Made by a program: the position numbers and the translations under genes
Notes under the pieces: model-generated
Databases searched by the model: none
Seen by the model: only the letters and a program-made list of their open reading frames with translations
What the model was told of the DNA's origin: nothing
Shown here: piece by piece, positions 1 through 7,926 of the stretch
Layout: every line of letters starts with the position of its first letter
Numbering within the stretch: position 1 is the first letter of the stretch
From: a virus
Lineage: Duplodnaviria; Heunggongvirae; Uroviricota; Caudoviricetes
IMG/VR virus record: IMGVR_UViG_2648501390_000011
Location: 1 to 7,926 of that record
Reading direction: 5' to 3' (one strand)
Length of the DNA: 7,926 bases

Positions 1-967
1 CAGGGGAAAAATGTGCATAAATCATAGTCATTTTAATATCTGAATGCCCAAGAATATCTTTCAAAACGAGTATGTTTCCACCGTTCATCATAAAATGACT
101 GGCGAATGTATGGCGCAGAACATGGGTACACTGACCTTCAGGCAGTTCAATACCAGCCCGTTTGACCGCTCGTTCAAAAGCCTTTCTGCATGGCGTGAAT
201 AACTTCCCTCTGTTTTTGGGGAGTTCGTCATAGAGAGCCTGAGATATCGGTACTGTCCTATTTTTCTTTCCTTTCGTCTTTGTATAGGTAATACGGTATT
301 TTGATAATTGGTGGCCCTGTAAGTTTTCCGCTTCACTCCAGCGCGCGCCGGTAGCCAAGCATACCTTTGCGATCATCAACAGACTTGGATTTTGAGAGTT
401 TGCGCAGGCGTCAAGTAGGCGTTTAATTTCCTCCTGAGATAGGAATGCCAATTCACCTTCAGCAATTTTAAATGTTGGAAGCCCTGCCAATGGGTTTGGT
501 GCTGACCAGTGTCCTAGTTTTTTCAATGTGCCGAATACAGATGACAGGTTACGCTGCTCAAGATTAACCGTGCGAGGTTTTACGGGGGACATGAAAACAC
601 CGTCTTCATTTTTGACCTCCCCCTTTAATCTGGCTTCCCGATATTTTGTGAAATCACCTGCTGTCAGTTCCGAGGCAATAGGATTGCCGAGACCGGTACA
701 AATAATTTTTAATTTTGCCATCAAACGCTTTGGGTCAGCGAGTGTCTGACCATACAGGGAATACCACTGCTCAATCACTTCTGACAGTTGTCGCCGATCT
801 TCTTTTTCTCCTAGCCAAGGTTTCTTGTTTACCTCGTCCATGGTGAAATTCTCAAACGCAATGGCTTCGCCTTTCGTCGCAAATTGTTTGCGTACGCGTT
901 TGCCATCTCGCCCGTTTGGGTAGCATTCACATAACCACTTTCCGTTCGGCTGTTTTCTGATGGTCAT
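1..967 (-). CDS. int: Tyrosine recombinase (phage integrase, P2/186 type); N-terminus at 967, C-terminal end lies beyond the left edge of the window
   Basis: Own translation of the minus strand from ATG (967-965) gives an uninterrupted frame down to position 2: MTIRKQPNGKWLCECYPNGRDGKRVRKQFATKGEAIAFE...HVLRHTFASHFMMNGGNILVLKDILGHSDIKMTMIYAHFSP. It contains the HxLRHT box and the catalytic-Tyr region (MIYAHF) typical of tyrosine recombinases. Absent from the ORF track only because there is no in-window stop; the listed 88..336 minus ORF is an out-of-frame shadow. Confidence 0.9.
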   Translation of the reverse strand, partial: MTIRKQPNGKWLCECYPNGRDGKRVRKQFATKGEAIAFENFTMDEVNKKPWLGEKEDRRQLSEVIEQWYSLYGQTLADPKRLMAKLKIICTGLGNPIASELTAGDFTKYREARLKGEVKNEDGVFMSPVKPRTVNLEQRNLSSVFGTLKKLGHWSAPNPLAGLPTFKIAEGELAFLSQEEIKRLLDACANSQNPSLLMIAKVCLATGARWSEAENLQGHQLSKYRITYTKTKGKKNRTVPISQALYDELPKNRGKLFTPCRKAFERAVKRAGIELPEGQCTHVLRHTFASHFMMNGGNILVLKDILGHSDIKMTMIYAHFSP

Positions 968-968
968 A

Positions 969-1601
969 TCAAAGGCTCTTAATGATTTTCAGTGCGCGGC
1001 CTATTACCTCAATGTCATCCAGTTCGCACTCAAACGATGAATCATCCTGATGCACTACTAATCTGTTTCCCGGGAGTCGTGTCAATTTTACAATGCTTTT
1101 TATCCCGTCGATGTCCACTAACCACGTACCATTTACTGGTGGTGTTTGGTTGCGATCTATTAAATAAGAATCACCAGAAGTAGTCACCAGCAGCAGGTTG
1201 CTTGAGTCTGAGGGGAGTATGCTGCTATCAATGATTGCTTTTCCAGCATCGATCAGCAAACCTCCGTTGAGAGTTGCCTTGTCAATTTCAGGAGATACAA
1301 GCTCCGAAAGAGGTTTAACTTTGCTAGAGTTCACGGAATTGATATTTCTTTTAGGGTCAATGTTTGAACCTGGATCGCCCTGTCCGGTAGTTAGCCACAG
1401 TAAAGAAACTCCTGTTTCCAAAGCGCACTGAATCACCCATTCTGCAGGAAAACTATCTCTTAAGTATCTGTTTGCCATAGTGCTTTTTGATGCGCCCAAG
1501 TGATCGCAAAGTTGCTGTCTGGACTTGAAATCATAGGCTGCCATTAGCCTATGGATAGCCTCTCTTCCCCCTGTATTCTCGCCAGCTTTTACTTGTATCA
1601 T
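969..1601 (-). CDS. cI: Phage CI-type repressor (186 CI-like: N-terminal HTH, C-terminal oligomerisation domain)
   Basis: 210-aa ORF. The N-terminus (GGREAIHRLMAAYDFKSRQQLCDHLGASKSTMANRYLRDSFPAEWVIQCALETGVSLLWLTTGQG) matches my recollection of the Phage_CI_repr HTH family. RBS-like AGGA sits upstream of ATG 1601. The stop (TGA, 971-969) is 1 nt from the int ATG, and the gene faces away from a divergent early operon. Confidence 0.8.
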   Translation of the reverse strand: MIQVKAGENTGGREAIHRLMAAYDFKSRQQLCDHLGASKSTMANRYLRDSFPAEWVIQCALETGVSLLWLTTGQGDPGSNIDPKRNINSVNSSKVKPLSELVSPEIDKATLNGGLLIDAGKAIIDSSILPSDSSNLLLVTTSGDSYLIDRNQTPPVNGTWLVDIDGIKSIVKLTRLPGNRLVVHQDDSSFECELDDIEVIGRALKIIKSL

Positions 1602-1613
1602 TTTTTAATCCTG

Positions 1614-1642
1614 TTGACGTATCAAATATTGGATCGTAGTAT
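1614..1642 (+). promoter_or_regulatory. Candidate sigma70 early (pR-like) promoter: TTGACG -17 bp- TAGTAT
   Basis: TTGACG at 1614-1619, a 17-nt spacer, and TAGTAT at 1637-1642 lie in the 119-bp cI/apl intergenic region, oriented toward the + strand early operon that starts at 1721. Confidence 0.45.
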
Positions 1643-1665
1643 CTTGGTGTATCAAATATTGAATC
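1619..1665. repeat. Two copies of a 17-bp operator-like element (GTATCAAATATTGGATC / GTATCAAATATTGAATC), 30 bp apart, each an imperfect dyad around AATATT
   Basis: Direct read: 1619-1635 and 1649-1665 are 16/17 identical. Copy 1 occupies the promoter spacer and copy 2 lies just downstream of the -10. A third partial copy (AATCAAATA) is at 1662-1670. Confidence 0.5.
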
Positions 1666-1720
1666 AAATAAAACAAGATAAAACGACGTAAACCAAACCT
1701 TAATCGAGAGATACTGCACT

Positions 1721-1969
1721 ATGAGCAACGACATTTCAATTCGTGTACCAAAAGTGATGGCGACACCAGCTGAGTTCGCGGAATGGGAAGGCCGCTCTCG
1801 CGGTTCGGTATATCAAATGATTCATAATGGTAAACTCGCTAAATTCTTGGAAAGAAAAGAAAAACCGAAAGACAGAGTATGTATACGTTACCTTGAGTAC
1901 AAAAAGGAACAAGTCAGGAAAAACATGGGCCAATCCAATTTCAACTTTAATGTCATCGTTGGTGACTAA
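1721..1969 (+). CDS. apl: Small HTH DNA-binding protein, Apl/Cox-like (excisionase / early-lytic repressor role in 186/P2)
   Basis: 82-aa ORF, first gene of the rightward operon and divergent from cI. Basic, with an HTH-like segment (PAEFAEWEGRSRGSVYQMIHNGKL). Assignment rests on position and size relative to 186 apl / P2 cox. Confidence 0.6.
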   Translation: MSNDISIRVPKVMATPAEFAEWEGRSRGSVYQMIHNGKLAKFLERKEKPKDRVCIRYLEYKKEQVRKNMGQSNFNFNVIVGD

Positions 1970-2001
1970 GTTCAATTATGAGAACTTTCTAAGGGGGCAG
2001 C

Positions 2002-2511
2002 ATGTTTGATTACAAGATTTCCAAACATCCGCATTTTGATGAAGCCTGTAGAGCTTTTGCACTACGTCACAATATGGCAAAGCTGGCAGAACGTGCAGGA
2101 ATGAATGTTCAGACACTGCGAAACAAACTCAATCCAGATCAACCGCATCAGCTCACCGCACCAGAAATCTGGTTGCTTACCGATCTGACTGAAGATTCAA
2201 CGTTGGTAGACGGTTTTCTGGCACAGATTCATTGTCTGCCATGTGTTCCGATTAATGAGGTGGCAAAAGAGAAACTGCCGCATTACGTCATGAGTGCAAC
2301 TGCAGAGATCGGGCGTGTTGCTGCAGGTGCGGTATCTGGCGATGTAAAAACCAGTGCAGGTCGTCGTGATGCTATCAGCAGCATTAACTCTGTAACACGA
2401 CTGATGGCGCTGGCGGCTGTTTCATTGCAGGCCCGTTTACAGGCTAATCCTGCGATGGCAAGTGCAGTTGATACTGTAACTGGCCTCGGTGCGTCATTCG
2501 GTTTGCTGTGA
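2002..2511 (+). CDS. cII: Phage CII-family regulatory protein (186 CII-like)
   Basis: 169-aa ORF with a strong RBS (AAGGGGG) before ATG 2002. Size and position immediately after apl match 186 CII. The N-terminus (MFDYKISKHPHFDEACRAFALRHNMAKLAERAGMNVQTLRNKLNP) matches my recollection of the phage regulatory CII family. Confidence 0.7.
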   Translation: MFDYKISKHPHFDEACRAFALRHNMAKLAERAGMNVQTLRNKLNPDQPHQLTAPEIWLLTDLTEDSTLVDGFLAQIHCLPCVPINEVAKEKLPHYVMSATAEIGRVAAGAVSGDVKTSAGRRDAISSINSVTRLMALAAVSLQARLQANPAMASAVDTVTGLGASFGLL

Positions 2512-3325: not shown

Positions 3326-3552
3326 TGGCTGATGCAATGGATCTTGTACAGCAGCGCGTTGAAGAAGAACGCCAGCGCCATATCCGTGCTGCCCGTGCCA
3401 AAACGCCGGGCGTGTCCCGCGTGCTTTGCATTGAGTGTGAAGCGCCAATTCCGCCAGCACGCCGCCGCGCCATTCCAGGTGTGCAGCTTTGTATTACCTG
3501 TCAGGAAATCGCAGAGCTGAAAGGCAAACATTACAACGGAGGTGCTGTATGA
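3325..3552 (+). CDS. TraR/DksA-family C4 zinc-finger protein
   Basis: 75 aa with two CxxC pairs (CIECEAPI...CITCQE) at the spacing expected for the TraR/DksA zinc finger. The start overlaps the upstream stop, and its own stop overlaps the dam start (ATGA). Confidence 0.75.
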   Translation: MADAMDLVQQRVEEERQRHIRAARAKTPGVSRVLCIECEAPIPPARRRAIPGVQLCITCQEIAELKGKHYNGGAV

Positions 3553-4406
3553 GCACCATCCTGAAATGGGCGGGAAATAAAACCGCCATTATGTCCGAAC
3601 TGAAAAAACACCTTCCTGCTGGCCCGCGACTGGTTGAACCTTTCGCGGGTTCCTGTGCTGTGATGATGGAGACGGATTACCCCAGCTATCTGGTTGCGGA
3701 TATTAATCCTGATTTAATCAACCTCTATAAAAAGGTTGCCGCTGATTGTGAATCGTTTATATCTCGCGCCAGAGTTTTATTTGAGATCGCAAACAGGGAG
3801 GTAGCTTATTACAACATAAGGCAGGAGTTTAATTACTCAACTGAAATTACTGATTTCATGAAAGCGGTATATTTCCTGTATCTCAATCGTCACGGTTACC
3901 GTGGTTTATGTCGCTATAACAAGAGTGGGCATTTCAACATTCCCTACGGTAATTATAAAAATCCGTATTTCCCTGAAAAAGAAATTCGCGCATTTGCAGA
4001 AAAAGCCCAGCGGGCAACGTTTATCTGCACCAGCTTTGATGAAACGCTGGCGATGTTGAAGGCGGGGGATGTGGTGTATTGCGATCCGCCGTATGACGGT
4101 ACGTTTTCCGGCTATCACACTGATGGTTTCACTGAAGATGACCAGTATCACCTAGCATCCGTTCTTGAACATCGATCATCTGAAGGACATCCGGTCATTG
4201 TTTCTAACAGTGACACATCCCTGATTCGTTCGCTGTATCGCAATTTTACTCACCACTATATCAAGGTAAAACGCAGCATCGGTGTGGCAGCTGGCGAGGG
4301 TAAATCAGCAACAGAAATCATCGCTGTTTCCGGGCCGCGCTGCTGGGTGGGATTTGATCCTTCGCGTGGCGTGGATAGTTCTGCCGTGTACGGAGTGCGT
4401 GCATGA
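3549..4406 (+). CDS. dam: DNA adenine methyltransferase, Dam-like (GATC-type N6-adenine MTase)
   Basis: GGAGG at 3538-3542 followed by ATG 3549. The 285-aa product has the SAM-binding motif ([10 protein letters not shown]), the catalytic DPPY motif ([10 protein letters not shown]) and long Dam-like stretches ([46 protein letters not shown]). The track's 3489 start is an upstream in-frame extension through the TraR-like gene. Confidence 0.9.
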
Positions 4407-6817
4407 GCCATGCTGATATGAACAACTGCAGCGGCTTTAACGAGATCGCCGCAGCATTCTCATGGAACAGCCCGAAAAAGGCCATTAACCCTTATCTGGA
4501 CCCGGCGGAAGTTGCGCCGGTTTCTGCGCTTTCAAACCTGATCACTCTGTACGCTGCCGATAACGAGCAGGAACAGCTGCGCCGTGAGGCGCTGAGTGAT
4601 CAGGTCTGGGAGCGTTATTTCTTTAATGAATCCCGTGATCCTGTCCAGCGCGAAATGGAGCAGGATAAGCTCATTAGTCGGGCAAAGCTGGCGCATGAGC
4701 AGCAGCGTTTTAATCCGGATATGGTCATTCTGGCGGACGTCAACGCCCAGCCTTCCCATATCAGCAAGCCGCTGATGCAACGTATTGAATACTTCAGCAG
4801 CCTGGGCAGGCCAAAGGCTTATTCCCGCTATTTGCGTGAGACGATTAAGCCATGTCTGGAACGACTGGAGCATGTACGCGAGAGTCAGCTATCCACTTCT
4901 TTTCGCTTTATGGCAAGCCATGAAGGGCTGGACGGCCTGCTGATTCTGCCTGAAATGAGTCAGGATCATGTGAAACGCCTGTCCACCCTGGTAGCTGCGC
5001 ATATGAGCATGTGCCTTGATGCAGCTTGTGGCGATTTGTATGCCACCGATGACGTTAAGCCAGAAGAAATCCGCAAGACATGGGAAAAGGTGGCGGCGGA
5101 AACCCTGCGTCTGGATGTCATCCCACCTGCGTTTGAGCAACTCCGTCGGAAAAGAAACCGCCGTAAACCCGTGCCCTATGAGCTCATTCCGGGTTCGCTG
5201 GCGCGTATGTTGTGCGGCGACTGGTGGTATCGGAAATTATGGAAGATGCGTTGCGAATGGCGGGAAGAGCAGTTGCGCGCTGTTTGCCTGGTCAGCAAAA
5301 AAGCATCTCCTTATGTCAGCTATGAAGCCGTGATGCATAAACGTGAGCAGCGCCGTAAGTCGCTGGAGTTTTTCCGTTCTCATGAACTGGTGAACGAAGA
5401 CGGCGACACGCTGGACATGGAGGATGTGGTAAACGCCAGCAGCAGCAACCCTGCGCATCGCCGCAATGAGATGATGGCCTGTGTTAAAGGTCTGGAGCTT
5501 ATCGCGGAAATGCGCGGTGACTGCGCCGTTTTCTACACTATCACCTGTCCGTCGCGTTTCCATTCCACGCTAAATAACGGCAGACCAAACCCGACCTGGA
5601 CAAACGCGACGGTAAGACAAAGCAGCGATTATCTGGTCGGCATGTTTGCTGCATTTCGTAAGGCGATGCACAAAGCCGGGTTGCGCTGGTATGGCGTGCG
5701 GGTGGCTGAGCCGCATCATGACGGCACAGTTCACTGGCACCTGTTGTGTTTCATGCGCAAAAAAGACCGCCGTGCCATTACTGCATTACTGCGTAAGTTT
5801 GCCATCCGTGAAGACCGCGAGGAGCTGGGCAATAACACTGGGCCGCGCTTTAAGTCTGAGTTGATTAACCCGCGCAAAGGAACGCCGACAAGCTACATCG
5901 CGAAATATATCAGTAAGAACATTGACGGTCGTGGTCTGGCTGGCGAGATCAGCAAGGAAACGGGTAAATCTCTGCGTGATAACGCTGAATACGTGAATGC
6001 CTGGGCGTCTCTGCATCGTGTTCAGCAATTCCGCTTCTTTGGTATTCCGGGGCGTCAGGCTTATCGTGAACTTCGCTTGCTGGCTGGTCAGGCGGCAAGG
6101 CAACAGGGTGACAAAAAAGCAGGTGCGCCGGTACTGGATAACCCGCGTCTTGATGCCATTCTGGCTGCTGCTGATGCTGGCTGTTTTGCCACCTACATCA
6201 TGAAGCAGGGCGGCGTGCTGGTTCCCCGCAAATATCACCTTATCAGAACAGCTTATGAAATTAACGAAGAGCCGACCGCCTATGGCGATCACGGTATTCG
6301 TATTTATGGCATCTGGTCACCCATTGCAGAGGGCAAGATCTGCACTCATGCCGTGAAGTGGAAAATGGTTCGTAAGGCCGTTGACGTTCAGGAGGCGGCA
6401 GCCGACCAGGGCGCTTGCGCCCCTTGGACTCGTGGCAATAACTGTCCCCTTGCTGAAAATTTGAACCAACAAGGGAAAGACAAATCAGCTTATGGGGATA
6501 CCAGAACGGACATTACCCGCATGGATGACAAGGAGTTGCACGATTACCTGCACAGTATGAGCAAAAAAGAGCGCCGGGAACTGGCTGCAAGGTTACGCCT
6601 GGTGAAACCGAAACGGCGTAAAGACTACAAACAGCGAATTACAGACCATCAGCGACAGCAGCTCGTCTATGAGCTGAAGTCCAGAGGATTTGATGGCAGC
6701 GAGAAAGAGGTCGGTTTACTCCTTCGCGGCGGCAGTATTCCGTCAGGAGCAGGCCTGCGTATCTTCTATCGGAACCAGCGTTTGCAGGAAGATGATAAGT
6801 GGCGGGATCTGTATTAA
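4403..6817 (+). CDS. A: Phage replication initiation endonuclease gpA (HUH rolling-circle initiator, P2 A family)
   Basis: 804-aa ORF. HUH metal-binding motif ([15 protein letters not shown]) and a downstream paired-tyrosine motif (YIAKYISKN), as in P2 gpA. The start overlaps the dam stop (ATGA at 4403-4406). Confidence 0.9.
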
Positions 6818-6909: not shown

Positions 6910-6929
6910 TACTGTAAATATAAACAGTG
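6910..6929. promoter_or_regulatory. LexA (SOS) box, TACTGTAAATATAAACAGTG
   Basis: CTGT-N8-ACAG with an AT-rich spacer; 17/20 match to the E. coli consensus TACTGTATATATATACAGTA. It lies 40 bp upstream of the RBS (AGGAGG, 6960-6965) of the ORF at 6970 and overlaps candidate -10 hexamers. Confidence 0.7.
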
Positions 6930-6969
6930 GTTATGTATACAGTATTGCTTTGGTGTCATAGGAGGAAAG

Positions 6970-7158
6970 ATGCAGGACTATTTTTTGGAGTCTTTGAAGC
7001 TCCAGCGCATTGATTTTTTTCTTAAGCTTGTAGCGGCTAGTGAGTGTAGTGATGAAGAGAAGGGGCTGGCCCTGCAGTGGGTTTCTGAACTAACAGATGA
7101 ACTCATGGCAAAAATCAGAACCCACGAATACAACCGCTCAATGGATGTCATCAGCTGA
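6970..7158 (+). CDS. Small SOS-regulated protein, candidate N-terminal part of a Tum-like antirepressor
   Basis: 62-aa ORF with a strong RBS, directly downstream of the LexA box. Its stop (TGA 7156-7158) overlaps the RBS of the DinI-like ORF. Function inferred from context only. Confidence 0.5.
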   Translation: MQDYFLESLKLQRIDFFLKLVAASECSDEEKGLALQWVSELTDELMAKIRTHEYNRSMDVIS

Positions 7159-7168
7159 GGTGACTTTT

Positions 7169-7402
7169 ATGCGCATTGAAATAATGATCGATAAAGAGCA
7201 GAAGATTAGCCAGTCTACCCTGGACGCTCTGGAGTCCGAGCTTTACCGCAACCTGCGCCCCCTGTATCCCAAAACGGTAATTCGTATCCGCAAAGGTAGC
7301 TCTAACGGTGTGGAACTTACCGGACTGCAACTGGACGAAGAAAGAAAACAAGTGATGAAAATTATGCAGAAAGTGTGGGAAGACGACAGCTGGCTGCATT
7401 AA
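7169..7402 (+). CDS. dinI: DinI-family protein (SOS-inducible; DinI/Tum C-terminal-domain-like)
   Basis: GAGG at 7157-7160 followed by ATG 7169; 77 aa (MRIEIMIDKEQKISQSTLDALESELYRNLRPLYPKTVIRIRKGSSNGVELTGLQLDEERKQVMKIMQKVWEDDSWLH). Length and pattern match E. coli DinI as I recall it (MRIEV...start, acidic W-containing C-terminus). The track's 7097 start is an upstream extension in the same frame. Confidence 0.75.
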   Translation: MRIEIMIDKEQKISQSTLDALESELYRNLRPLYPKTVIRIRKGSSNGVELTGLQLDEERKQVMKIMQKVWEDDSWLH

Positions 7403-7537
7403 GAAACGTTGCTGGCGTCTGAACTTGCTTCTGGCGTCAGCAAGGTTGAACAACGAGCCCTTGCGAGGCGTTAGCTCTGTAGTGCATGTCTATGCCGCAT
7501 GAGATCGCATGATCGTTTGAGGATCGTTTTTGCTAAG

Positions 7538-7561
7538 GCCCGCCAGAACTGGCGGGCTTTT
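7538..7561 (+). terminator. Rho-independent terminator (GCCCGCCA-GAAC-TGGCGGGC-TTTT)
   Basis: Perfect 8-bp GC-rich stem with a 4-nt loop, followed by TTTT; 135 bp downstream of the dinI-like stop and upstream of the AT-rich cargo gene. Confidence 0.6.
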
Positions 7562-7726
7562 GCGTAGATCATGCAGGTGCATGAAAACCACTGCATAAAG
7601 CGGGCAGGCGTGGCGGGGATACGAGCGCGCGCAACAGTGTAACAATCTGGATCTAATGTGATATAGTTACTGTAAATATTATTAACTATTCTTATATGCA
7701 TTATTAAATATTTTAATGGAGCGTTT

Positions 7727-7926
7727 ATGGAAAAATATCAAGATGAGGAATATGTAGATGATTTAACTGAGCGTGTTTTTCTCATTAAGCAACAACTGGA
7801 AGCGGGAAAACTAAAAATAGCTCATCATCTTGTAGAAGGTTTTATTGAAAGTTTTAAAAGAATAAGGCTGCGACAGGATGGTAAAGTTGACCCTTCTACT
7901 GTTGATGGCAGAATAAGGGCTATGGG
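7727..7926 (+). CDS. Hypothetical protein, N-terminal 66 codons only (continues past the right edge); AT-rich accessory gene
   Basis: GGAG at 7718-7721 followed by ATG 7727. Own translation MEKYQDEEYVDDLTERVFLIKQQLEAGKLKIAHHLVEGFIESFKRIRLRQDGKVDPSTVDGRIRAM has no stop before the window end. By my count the first 64 nt are about 31% G+C, against about 52% in a sampled 60 nt of gpA. Confidence 0.55.
   Translation, partial: MEKYQDEEYVDDLTERVFLIKQQLEAGKLKIAHHLVEGFIESFKRIRLRQDGKVDPSTVDGRIRAM

Follow-up and report, generated by a model that had tools for sequence, protein, structure and literature searches.

A very probable 186-type immunity switch in a Klebsiella prophage, with candidate repressor operators of its own

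The locus at which a leftward cI-int unit faces apl raises the question of whether these genes form a lysis-lysogeny switch of the coliphage 186 type and, if so, which DNA sequences its repressor reads. The window, that is, the whole stretch of DNA analysed, is 7,926 nt long, and over positions 900-2600 it is 99.9% identical to Klebsiella phage Kp4845-2. Based on the gene content summarized in the following lines, the region is very probably the immunity/decision switch of a 186-type (Peduoviridae) Klebsiella prophage.

1..967, minus strand: int, tyrosine integrase (Pfam Int_N 1.4e-28, Phage_integrase 1.1e-24)
969..1601, minus strand: cI, immunity repressor of the 186-CI type, 210 aa, with a longer inter-domain linker (Pfam and PDB matches)
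1609..1612, minus strand: cI Shine-Dalgarno sequence AGGA, 7 nt before the ATG, adjoining the -35 of pR
1721..1969, plus strand: apl, Cox-like excisionase and lytic regulator, 82 aa (29% identity to 186 Apl, E 5e-10)
2002..2511, plus strand: cII, 169 aa (Pfam Phage_CP76 2.2e-44; 71% identity to 186 CII)

The only Pfam families found in CI were PF07022 Phage_CI_repr (6e-31) and PF16452 Phage_CI_C (4.8e-28), and its PDB matches, 2FJR (3.5e-25) and 2FKD (6.7e-12), cover both domains of 186 CI. The two repressors are 32% identical, and the linker of the protein studied here carries a 16-residue insertion relative to the 186 CI structure. Homology of the C-terminal domain to 2FKD suggests that this CI may assemble into a heptamer-of-dimers wheel that wraps or loops DNA. 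The counterparts of apl in relatives are annotated as apl or excisionase, and past apl the genes for CII, Fil and gpA follow one another as in phage 186. Open reading frames and protein families together show cI and int as a leftward operon, with apl-cII-...-A running rightward against it, the order annotated for 186. An earlier reading made from the sequence alone had proposed a 186-type switch, and the analysis bears this out, since all the defining 186 genes are present and in 186 order. The same reading placed the cI stop and the int ATG 1 nt apart on the minus strand; a single nucleotide, 968, indeed lies between the stop (971..969) and the ATG (967..965). The int gene, which continues past the left window end, has a weak Shine-Dalgarno sequence, AAGAG, 8 nt upstream and within the 3′ end of cI. 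The 119-bp cI/apl spacer is likewise as described, occupying 1602-1720 with the apl start at 1721. No Rfam family was matched anywhere in the window.

Two promoters were assigned to the spacer and its right border.

1614..1642, plus strand: pR, early lytic promoter (promoter scan, position homology with 186 pR, conservation)
1711..1739, minus strand: pL, lysogenic promoter for cI-int (position homology with the annotated 186 pL)

The pR promoter comprises a -35 hexamer TTGACG (1614-1619), a 17-nt spacer and a -10 hexamer TAGTAT (1637-1642), with 9 of the 12 consensus positions matched in the promoter scan; its start would lie at about 1649-1651. This is the near-consensus rightward pair that the sequence-only reading had noticed, and it stands at the 186 pR offset from the cI ATG. 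Because the scan of the region was not enriched over shuffled sequences (2 matches vs 3.1 ± 2.0), the support for pR comes from its position homology with 186 pR and from its conservation, with a pairwise identity of 0.96-0.99 among nine loci. The pL promoter has a -35 hexamer TTGAAA (1739..1734), a 17-nt spacer and a -10 hexamer CAGTAT (1716..1711). Relative to the apl ATG, the -10 occupies -10..-5 and the -35 occupies +13..+18, offsets equal to those of the annotated 186 pL, and across six loci representing three CI types the stretch shows little or no variation. With 8 of 12 matches, pL falls below the threshold of the promoter scan. The earlier reading could not place the leftward cI promoter confidently by eye; position homology with 186 places it at 1739..1711, with a predicted start near 1704-1705. 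In the suggested comparison with the annotated 186 pR/pL region, both promoters keep their 186 distances to the start codons of cI and apl. As judged from these positions, pL would lie to the right of pR, converge on it and overlap the apl start as in 186, and the two predicted starts would stand face to face about 55 bp apart; the class of convergent pR/pL pairs is defined by starts 40-62 bp apart. A further leftward pair, TTGATA-17-AATGAT (1625..1597, minus strand), was rejected as the cI promoter because transcription would begin inside cI, downstream of the ATG.

Three candidate CI sites were identified, two over pR and one within cI.

1619..1635: candidate operator O1, core dyad ATCAA-ATA-TTGGA at 1621-1633, centre 1627, filling the pR spacer
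1649..1665: candidate operator O2, core dyad ATCAA-ATA-TTGAA at 1651-1663, centre 1657, at about +1 to +15 of pR
1356..1368: candidate FL-like distal CI site, GTCAATGTTTGAA, in the linker codons of cI (consensus match)

The copies GTATCAAATATTGGATC (1619-1635) and GTATCAAATATTGAATC (1649-1665) are identical at 16 of 17 positions, have a 30-bp offset and flank the -10 of pR. In the 7.9 kb analysed, the 17-mer has only these 2 matches at up to 3 mismatches (0.03 expected), and two matches occurred in 0 of 200 shuffles. The repeat can be extended to 22 nt (1614-1635 and 1644-1665, 19 of 22 identical), in which case the first copy takes in the -35 hexamer. The sequence-only reading had described two near-identical 17-bp dyads; the repeats and their coordinates stand, but the copies are mainly direct repeats, each containing an imperfect 13-bp inverted repeat. 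Since the variation sits in the central 3 nt and the left flank, we take the core site to be this 13-bp dyad, with consensus sequence 5′-DTCAA-N3-TTGRA-3′. The window contains exactly three exact matches to the consensus (O1, O2 and the site in cI), with 0.20 expected.

The comparison with relatives comprised 89 loci encoding the same CI (identity of at least 82%) and at least 31 distinct spacers. O1 and O2 are found at fixed positions, without indels, in all 89, and the pair is absent in nine loci with other CI N-termini. The identity of O2, 0.72-0.80, is the lowest in the spacer; within O2, TCAA (1652-1655) and TTGA (1659-1662) are invariant or nearly so, and the centre (1656-1658) and left flank (1646-1651) vary. 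Variation limited to a 3-nt centre and the flanks is the pattern that would be expected of a dimer-bound dyad. These comparisons support the assignment of O1 and O2 as CI operators. CI types 1-3 have an identical recognition helix, SKSTMANRYLRDSFPAEW; therefore, the co-occurrence of operators and CI type may partly reflect linkage rather than binding specificity. In locus L018 the helix differs by one residue, RNL for RYL, and in CI type 2 a TTCAAGGTTTGAA dyad lies 5 bp nearer the promoter. With this common helix, CI types 1-3 may not be strictly heteroimmune.

Only 7 bp separate the centres of the TCAA and TTGA cores, a short distance for a helix-turn-helix dimer. CI may contact the DNA further outward or asymmetrically.

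Neither position weight matrix nor consensus scans detected a third pR operator at ±21 or ±30 bp of O1 and O2. The sequence GTATCA (1595-1600) was discarded as a third operator, as it derives from Met-Ile-Gln codons and is out of phase (24 bp). Similar repeat offsets at pR were observed in Cartapus (about 31 bp) and L018 (30 bp). The longer CI linker is not supported as a general explanation of three-turn rather than two-turn spacing, since a repeat with a 30-bp offset is found at pR in BIS20 too, whose CI has 195 aa. An inverted repeat, I1 (1634-1652 and 1668-1686), has arms that vary among relatives. The literature searched gave no description of operators or promoters, and no experiments on binding or start sites, for this immunity class.

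The site within cI is the sole exact DTCAANNNTTGRA match in the window besides O1 and O2; from its centre at 1362 the distance is 265 bp to O1 and 295 bp to O2. It is present without mismatch in 76 of the 89 loci. Synonymous third-codon positions in its half-sites are conserved (1359 nearly invariant, 1365 invariant), while 1356, 1362 and 1368 vary, and in locus L011 the site is retained despite different amino acids. Based on this conservation and position, the dyad is probably a distal FL-like site that would loop to pR.

How CI would read the two copies over pR admits another answer, namely head to tail as direct repeats, in the manner of P2 C, and not as dimer-bound dyads. The two copies resemble each other as direct repeats (16/17) more closely than either shows internal symmetry, the conservation of O2 is asymmetric (right flank AATC kept, left flank variable), and P2-type operators are two direct repeats around the early promoter (PMC1904268). 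We nonetheless consider a head-to-tail arrangement improbable: the repressor is a two-domain 186-type CI and not a 99-aa C protein; among relatives O2 drifts from O1 at up to 7 of 17 positions with the dyad kept or even improved, as in locus L008 with its perfect TTCAA-ATG-TTGAA; and no flanking repeat sequence accompanies the dyad in cI.

The repeats could also be attributed to Apl, a Cox-like recombination directionality factor. Proteins of this kind use direct repeats in phase, the two copies have the same orientation and an offset of 30 bp, or 3 x 10, and the Apl/Cox sites of P2-like phages form direct repeats spaced by about one helical turn close to the early promoters (PMC7498355). Three Apl alleles are, however, shuffled across CI types, and O1 and O2 follow the CI type and not the allele: alleles A, B and C all accompany the pair under CI type 1 and lack it under type 2 or 3, and locus L005 encodes an Apl 96% identical yet has no O1/O2. 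A separate set of 10-bp-phased repeats suits Apl better, and assigning O1 and O2 to Apl is accordingly very unlikely. That the repeat is a duplicated promoter, giving two tandem rightward promoters (TTGACG... and TTGGTG...), is extremely unlikely, for although the 22-nt repeat takes in the -35 hexamer and its second copy starts TTGGTG, this second hexamer is TCGATG or similar in most relatives and varies freely (1646-1651), no -10-like hexamer follows at 17 nt, the scan gave no second promoter, and the conserved part is the TCAA-N3-TTGA core and not the promoter-like part. We therefore retain O1 and O2 as CI-bound dyads.

The sites proposed for the other regulators of the switch lie to the right of O2.

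1668..1694, plus strand: candidate Apl sites, ATAAAAC (1668), ATAAAAC (1678) and GTAAACC (1688), with an exact 10-bp period
1968..1987: palindrome AAGTTCAATTATGAGAACTT at the apl stop, at the place of 186 FR and of the pE core
2002..2028: predicted CII binding site for the leftward establishment promoter pE, ATGTTTG (2002-2008) and CAAACAT (2022-2028)

The candidate Apl repeats (RTAAAMC) lie between the pR and pL starts, with an identity of 0.91-0.96, and similar phased A..AAAC repeats are also found in loci of other CI types. The Apl operators of 186 have the same arrangement (PMC7498355; 186 record annotation). Apl probably binds these three phased repeats; attP lies outside the window.

At the apl stop, the palindrome forms a conserved island (0.92-0.95) amid poorly conserved flanks, identical or nearly so in 88 loci, and is a poor match to the operator consensus. 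Being unchanged in loci of CI types 2 and 3, it lacks the type specificity looked for in a CI-specific FR site; it may represent no more than the pE core, or the recognition helix common to these types may allow CI to read it. Inside it lies CATAAT (1980..1975), which together with TAGAAA (1993..1988) is a candidate -10 for pE. The CII half-sites are 20 bp apart start to start and match the annotated 186 CII site.

An induction module lies further to the right.

6912..7402, plus strand: SOS induction arm (LexA box, 62-aa ORF and DinI-like ORF)

The arm opens with a perfect LexA box, CTGTAAATATAAACAG (6912-6927), followed by the 62-aa ORF (6970-7158) and the DinI-like ORF (7169-7402). The latter is 41% identical to residues 71-145 of 186 Tum; the 62-aa ORF showed no similarity to the N-terminus of 186 Tum. 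Taken together, the two ORFs resemble a split Tum antirepressor, and they would presumably act as one.

O1 also contains a GATC (1632-1635), 1 nt upstream of the pR -10. At least seven CI types, with spacer operators that are otherwise fully diverged, keep it at this position, and a Dam methylase gene is present in the pR operon of most of the checked phages that keep the GATC. Both are found in Cartapus, ST258-KPC3phi16.1 and ST13-OXA48phi12.1, and both are lacking in 186, BIS20, Kp4882-2 and YenM_324; the exceptions are PSP3, with the GATC and no dam, and ESSI-2, with dam and no GATC at its apparent pR. A link between the GATC and phage dam is thus partly supported. Whether the methylation state of the O1 GATC tunes CI binding to O1, pR firing or both is a more speculative matter, and we regard such tuning as doubtful. 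If it does occur, unmethylated or hemimethylated DNA, after infection or replication, would behave unlike fully methylated prophage DNA, which would add an epigenetic, replication-linked input to the 186-type switch.

From gene identities, positions, repeat statistics, conservation and CI-type co-occurrence, we infer binding, transcription starts, interference and looping, and propose the following working of the switch. In a lysogenic cell, the leftward cI-int operon would supply CI, which would occupy two 13-bp dyads of the DTCAA-N3-TTGRA type, O1 in the spacer of the strong pR and O2 over its start, and so turn off apl-cII-replication transcription. The weak pL, which lies rightward of the pR start by about 55 bp, would fire toward pR; as it converges on pR, repression of pR should also relieve transcriptional interference on pL, as in 186. 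Apl expressed from pR would probably bind the three 10-bp-phased repeats between the two starts. CII, bound to ATGTTTG-N13-CAAACAT at the cII start, would fire pE leftward and thereby establish CI. Upon SOS induction, the LexA-controlled split Tum would probably inactivate CI.

There are 446 relatives of this CI in IMG/VR. The analysis provides a sequence-level map of the switch of a very common 186-like immunity class, found in Klebsiella, Salmonella, Citrobacter, Enterobacter and Yersinia, which covers pR, pL, two operators, an intragenic distal site, Apl repeats, the CII/pE site and the LexA/Tum arm. The operator consensus DTCAA-N3-TTGRA is testable, and the map could be used in predicting immunity groups and prophage inducibility in clinical Klebsiella. 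Additionally, with two operators 30 bp apart and a longer linker, the switch offers a natural variant for the generality of the 186 CI wheel model.

Among known systems, the lambda type was set aside, as the promoters here converge instead of forming a divergent PR/PRM pair and CI has no peptidase S24 domain. With the P2 C/Cox switch the locus shares facing early and lysogenic promoters, repressor sites that flank the early -10 and the use of phased direct repeats by Cox/Apl. P2 C is a small (about 99 aa), single-domain protein that reads direct repeats, and P2 is without cII and pE; the CI studied here has 210 aa and two domains of the 186 type, and cII is present with its site, which places the locus outside the P2 type. 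PSP3 has a comparable split of Tum into a small N-terminal ORF (TumA) and a DinI-like ORF (TumB) downstream of gene A, a likeness drawn from the annotated split; the 62-aa ORF was compared with the N-terminus of 186 Tum.

Coliphage 186 shares with the locus the order int-cI / apl-cII-fil...A, a CI of two domains and the direct succession of cI and int without a real gap, and its record annotates, at matching positions, a cI-int operon transcribed from pL and a pR overlain by CI operators. The distance from pR to the cI ATG is 12-14 nt and the pR spacer holds a candidate operator, a weak predicted pL that would converge on pR overlies the apl start, phased repeats lie between the predicted starts and CII half-sites at the cII start, a dyad in cI lies about 270-300 bp from pR (the FL place), a palindrome lies at the apl stop (the FR place), and a Tum-related module follows a LexA box. 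In contrast, CI and Apl are only 32% and 29% identical to their 186 counterparts and the operator sequences are unrelated. There are two strong candidate operators 30 bp apart here vs three, two helical turns apart, in 186 (PMC3675496). The 14-mer wheel of 186 CI implies a two-turn phasing of operators, which 30 bp does not fit (PMC3675496); of the sequence-only parallel with 186, drawn together with the 30-bp offset, the switch design holds, whereas operator number and spacing differ. The predicted starts are about 55 bp apart here vs 62 bp in 186, and cI and int are separated by 1 nt here vs a 1-nt overlap in 186. Further differences are the 16 additional linker residues in CI, the division of Tum into two ORFs and the Dam methylase gene in the early operon.

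The closest relatives, SopEPhi, SEN8 and MLG42 (Felsduovirus) and Kp4845-2, have the same CI (at least 82% identical), the 119-bp spacer, O1 and O2. SopEPhi orf1 and orf2 are annotated as similar to 186 CI and Apl, and its longer CI coupler has been noted before (PMC3448106). The window is a member of this SopEPhi/Kp4845-2 immunity class, with no difference of kind. No new kind of system emerges from the analysis: the switch is a common and unexceptional representative of a thoroughly studied family, with candidate repressor-binding sequences of its own.

The window is the 7.9-kb early region of a P2/186-like (Peduoviridae) prophage, with the following left-to-right order:

int, minus strand, cut off by the left window edge
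969-1601, minus strand, cI
1721-1969, apl
2002-2511, cII
between cII and the Dam methylase gene, in this order: fil, DUF5347, DUF2732, DksA-like zinc finger
3549-4406, Dam methylase
4403-6817, replication gene A

The two Pfam domains of 186 CI are both present in the window's CI, which also matches the solved structures of 186 CI, 2FJR and 2FKD, and is 32% identical to that protein; Apl and CII are 29% and 71% identical to their 186 counterparts. Positions 900-2600 show 99.9% identity to 12 unannotated Klebsiella pneumoniae phage records (Kp4845-2 and relatives) and 80-83% identity to Salmonella phages SEN8 and SopEPhi and Yersinia phage MLG42. The Dam proteins of the window and of Kp4845-2 (OK490395) share 98.2% identity, compared with 99.9% for the switch-region DNA; thus, the window comes from a close relative of Kp4845-2, not from that exact phage.

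The sequence-only reading of a 186-type lysis-lysogeny switch was right in substance; our refinements are a candidate pL (the leftward cI-int promoter), a 13-bp dyad core, a probable FL-like site and an operator geometry unlike that of 186. The cI stop (971..969) and the int ATG (967..965) are indeed separated by 1 nt, whereas cI and int overlap by 1 nt in 186. The cI/apl spacer measures the reported 119 bp, and a promoter scan recovered the predicted rightward early promoter pR, TTGACG-17-TAGTAT, at 1614-1642. The two 17-mers described as near-identical dyads, O1 (1619-1635) and O2 (1649-1665), differ by a single base. Allowing up to three mismatches, the repeat matches nowhere else in the window (two observed, 0.03 expected), and it can be extended to 22 nt, taking in the -35 hexamer.

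Comparison across loci supports O1 and O2 as predicted CI operators over pR. Loci were collected from bacterial genomes (18), from 80 of 446 IMG/VR relatives and from phage records. O1 and O2 are present at fixed positions, without indels, in 89 of the 89 loci with a CI identity of at least 82%, which cover at least 31 distinct spacer sequences, and the pair is absent from nine loci with different CI N-termini. That Apl, rather than CI, reads the repeats is very improbable: each of three Apl alleles (approximately 70-75% mutual identity) occurs with or without the pair, whose presence is set by the CI type alone, which excludes Apl as the reader.

Within O2, TCAA (1652-1655) and TTGA (1659-1662) are fully or almost fully conserved, while variation falls on the three central bases and on the left flank; within O1, the central base is the sole common change. 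This pattern indicates that the conserved unit is a 13-bp dyad, DTCAA-N3-TTGRA, centered at 1627 and 1657. Conservation within the spacer is lowest at O2 (0.72-0.80, versus 0.96-0.99 for the -35, O1 and the -10). SopEPhi has 7 differences between its two copies over 17 positions, and in locus L008, O2 is a perfect TTCAA-ATG-TTGAA; the near-identity of both 17-mers is a trait of this phage, not of its class. The 7-bp distance between the TCAA/TTGA cores is small for a helix-turn-helix dimer; the actual contacts may therefore reach further out.

The recognition helix SKSTMANRYLRDSFPAEW is identical in the window's CI type (type 1) and in types 2 and 3, with L018 one residue off (RNL for RYL). 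CI type 2 has a related dyad, TTCAA-GGT-TTGAA, 5 bp nearer the promoter. Based on the helix and the TTCAA half-site common to types 1-3, some of these types may cross-react. The switch is mosaic: most pairings of the three Apl alleles with several CI types occur, and the junction falls within the pR-pL spacer (L002-L018, L025-L104).

The consensus DTCAA-N3-TTGRA has three exact matches in the window, against 0.20 expected in total: O1, O2 and GTCAATGTTTGAA at 1356-1368. This third dyad corresponds to cI codons 78-83, in the variable linker; its distances to O1 and O2, 265 and 295 bp, are comparable to that of FL, the distal CI site located within cI approximately 300 bp from pR in 186. It has zero mismatches to the consensus in 76 of the 89 loci. 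Among third-codon positions, those within the half-sites are nearly invariant (1359) or invariant (1365), while 1356, 1362 and 1368, outside them, vary; in L011, the dyad is kept despite a residue change from GSN to ESI. We consider it a probable FL-like site, where CI may bind and support looping.

The leftward promoter had been left unplaced in the sequence-only reading; comparison of positions with annotated 186 yielded a candidate. The 186 RefSeq record, in which pR, pL, the CII-dependent establishment promoter pE and the CI, Apl and CII sites are annotated, makes positions directly comparable. The pR promoter sequence begins 14 nt from the cI ATG in 186 and 12 nt from it in the window, and the pR spacer, which holds a CI operator in 186, is filled by O1. 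The 186 pL is located rightward of pR and directed towards it; relative to the apl ATG, its -10 occupies -10..-5 and its -35 occupies +13..+18. The window has CAGTAT (1716..1711) and TTGAAA (1739..1734) at exactly these offsets, separated by 17 nt. Six loci of three CI types show no or almost no variation in this stretch, and its pairwise identity is 0.92-0.99 among nine same-CI loci. The predicted pL scores 8/12, under the scan threshold and weak like 186 pL, and would place the pR and pL starts approximately 55 bp apart, compared with 62 bp in 186. The sole minus-strand scan match (1625..1597) was rejected because its start would fall inside cI.

Between the pR and pL starts, three RTAAAMC repeats (1668, 1678 and 1688) follow at exact 10-bp intervals, the arrangement described for the 186 Apl operators (PMC7498355). 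The whole window has 15 copies of this motif against 3.65 expected, a count reached in none of 200 shuffles, with the excess extending beyond the 1668-1694 trio. The cII start carries ATGTTTG and CAAACAT, half-sites with a 20-bp spacing that agree with the 186 CII site. The 20-bp palindrome AAGTTCAATTATGAGAACTT (1968-1987), located a short way upstream over the apl stop codon, forms a sharply conserved island flanked by variable sequence and occupies the place of the 186 distal CI site FR and the pE core. It matches the CI consensus poorly and is the same in loci of CI types 1-3; it may provide the pE -10 (CATAAT), a CI site or both.

A GATC at 1632-1635 lies directly upstream of the pR -10. 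It is found at the same place in all CI types examined among close relatives (L005-L018, L020-L024, L106-L108, L111), among which the remainder of the spacer operator has wholly diverged. The pR operon encodes a Dam methylase in the window (3549-4406) and in most GATC-bearing phages checked. The pR GATC is missing from 186, BIS20, Kp4882-2 and YenM_324, all without dam; PSP3 has it without dam, and in the dam-bearing ESSI-2, it was not seen at the apparent pR. A P2-type dam-bearing Yersinia phage (L115) also has a GATC in its early-promoter spacer. Four further GATC (7503, 7511, 7522 and 7567) fall within 68 bp of non-coding sequence (7503-7570) downstream of a DinI-like ORF.

Downstream of gene A, a perfect LexA box, CTGTAAATATAAACAG (6912-6927), precedes a 62-aa ORF without similarity to Tum, the SOS-induced antirepressor of 186, and then the DinI-like ORF, which shares 41% identity with the C-terminal part of Tum. 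PSP3 has an annotated split TumA/TumB layout, arranged likewise. Region 6912-7402 is probably the SOS antirepressor arm of the switch, and induction through an antirepressor fits a CI whose protein families include no autocleavage domain. Within 7639-7926, a promoter-like GTAACA-17-TATAGT with TG precedes TACTGTAAATATTATTAAC, a sequence similar to half a LexA box; next comes a plus-strand ORF that runs from 7728 past the window edge and may be a second SOS-linked gene, like 186 orf97.

By homology to 186 (PMC3675496, PMC7498355, PMC7708051) and from the sequence evidence, with binding events and start sites predicted, we propose that CI dimers at O1 and O2 would keep RNA polymerase from using pR. 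As the predicted pL is directed into pR, this repression should lift interference on pL, sustaining cI-int expression, and the intragenic cI site may raise operator occupancy through looping. After infection, pR would express Apl and CII; CII would activate pE, establishing CI, while Apl would dampen pL and pR and also serve excision.

The system belongs to the well-known 186-type switch family; its immunity class is very common and already deposited many times; in the literature searched, we found no description of the operators of this class, which are apparently undescribed. The CI linker is 16 residues longer than that of 186, a feature already noted for SopEPhi and Fels-2 (PMC3448106). 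A simple rule relating linker length to operator spacing is unsupported, as the pR of BIS20 (L112), a phage with a short CI of 186-like length, is also surrounded by a 14-nt direct repeat, GCATTGATGATAAT / GCATCAATGATAAT, whose copies are offset by 30 bp; the 30-bp offset thus recurs among unrelated immunity types. The window has two strong operators 30 bp (approximately 2.9 turns) apart, whereas 186 has three, two turns apart, and this 30-bp spacing does not fit the two-turn phasing that underlies the 186 wheel-wrapping model.
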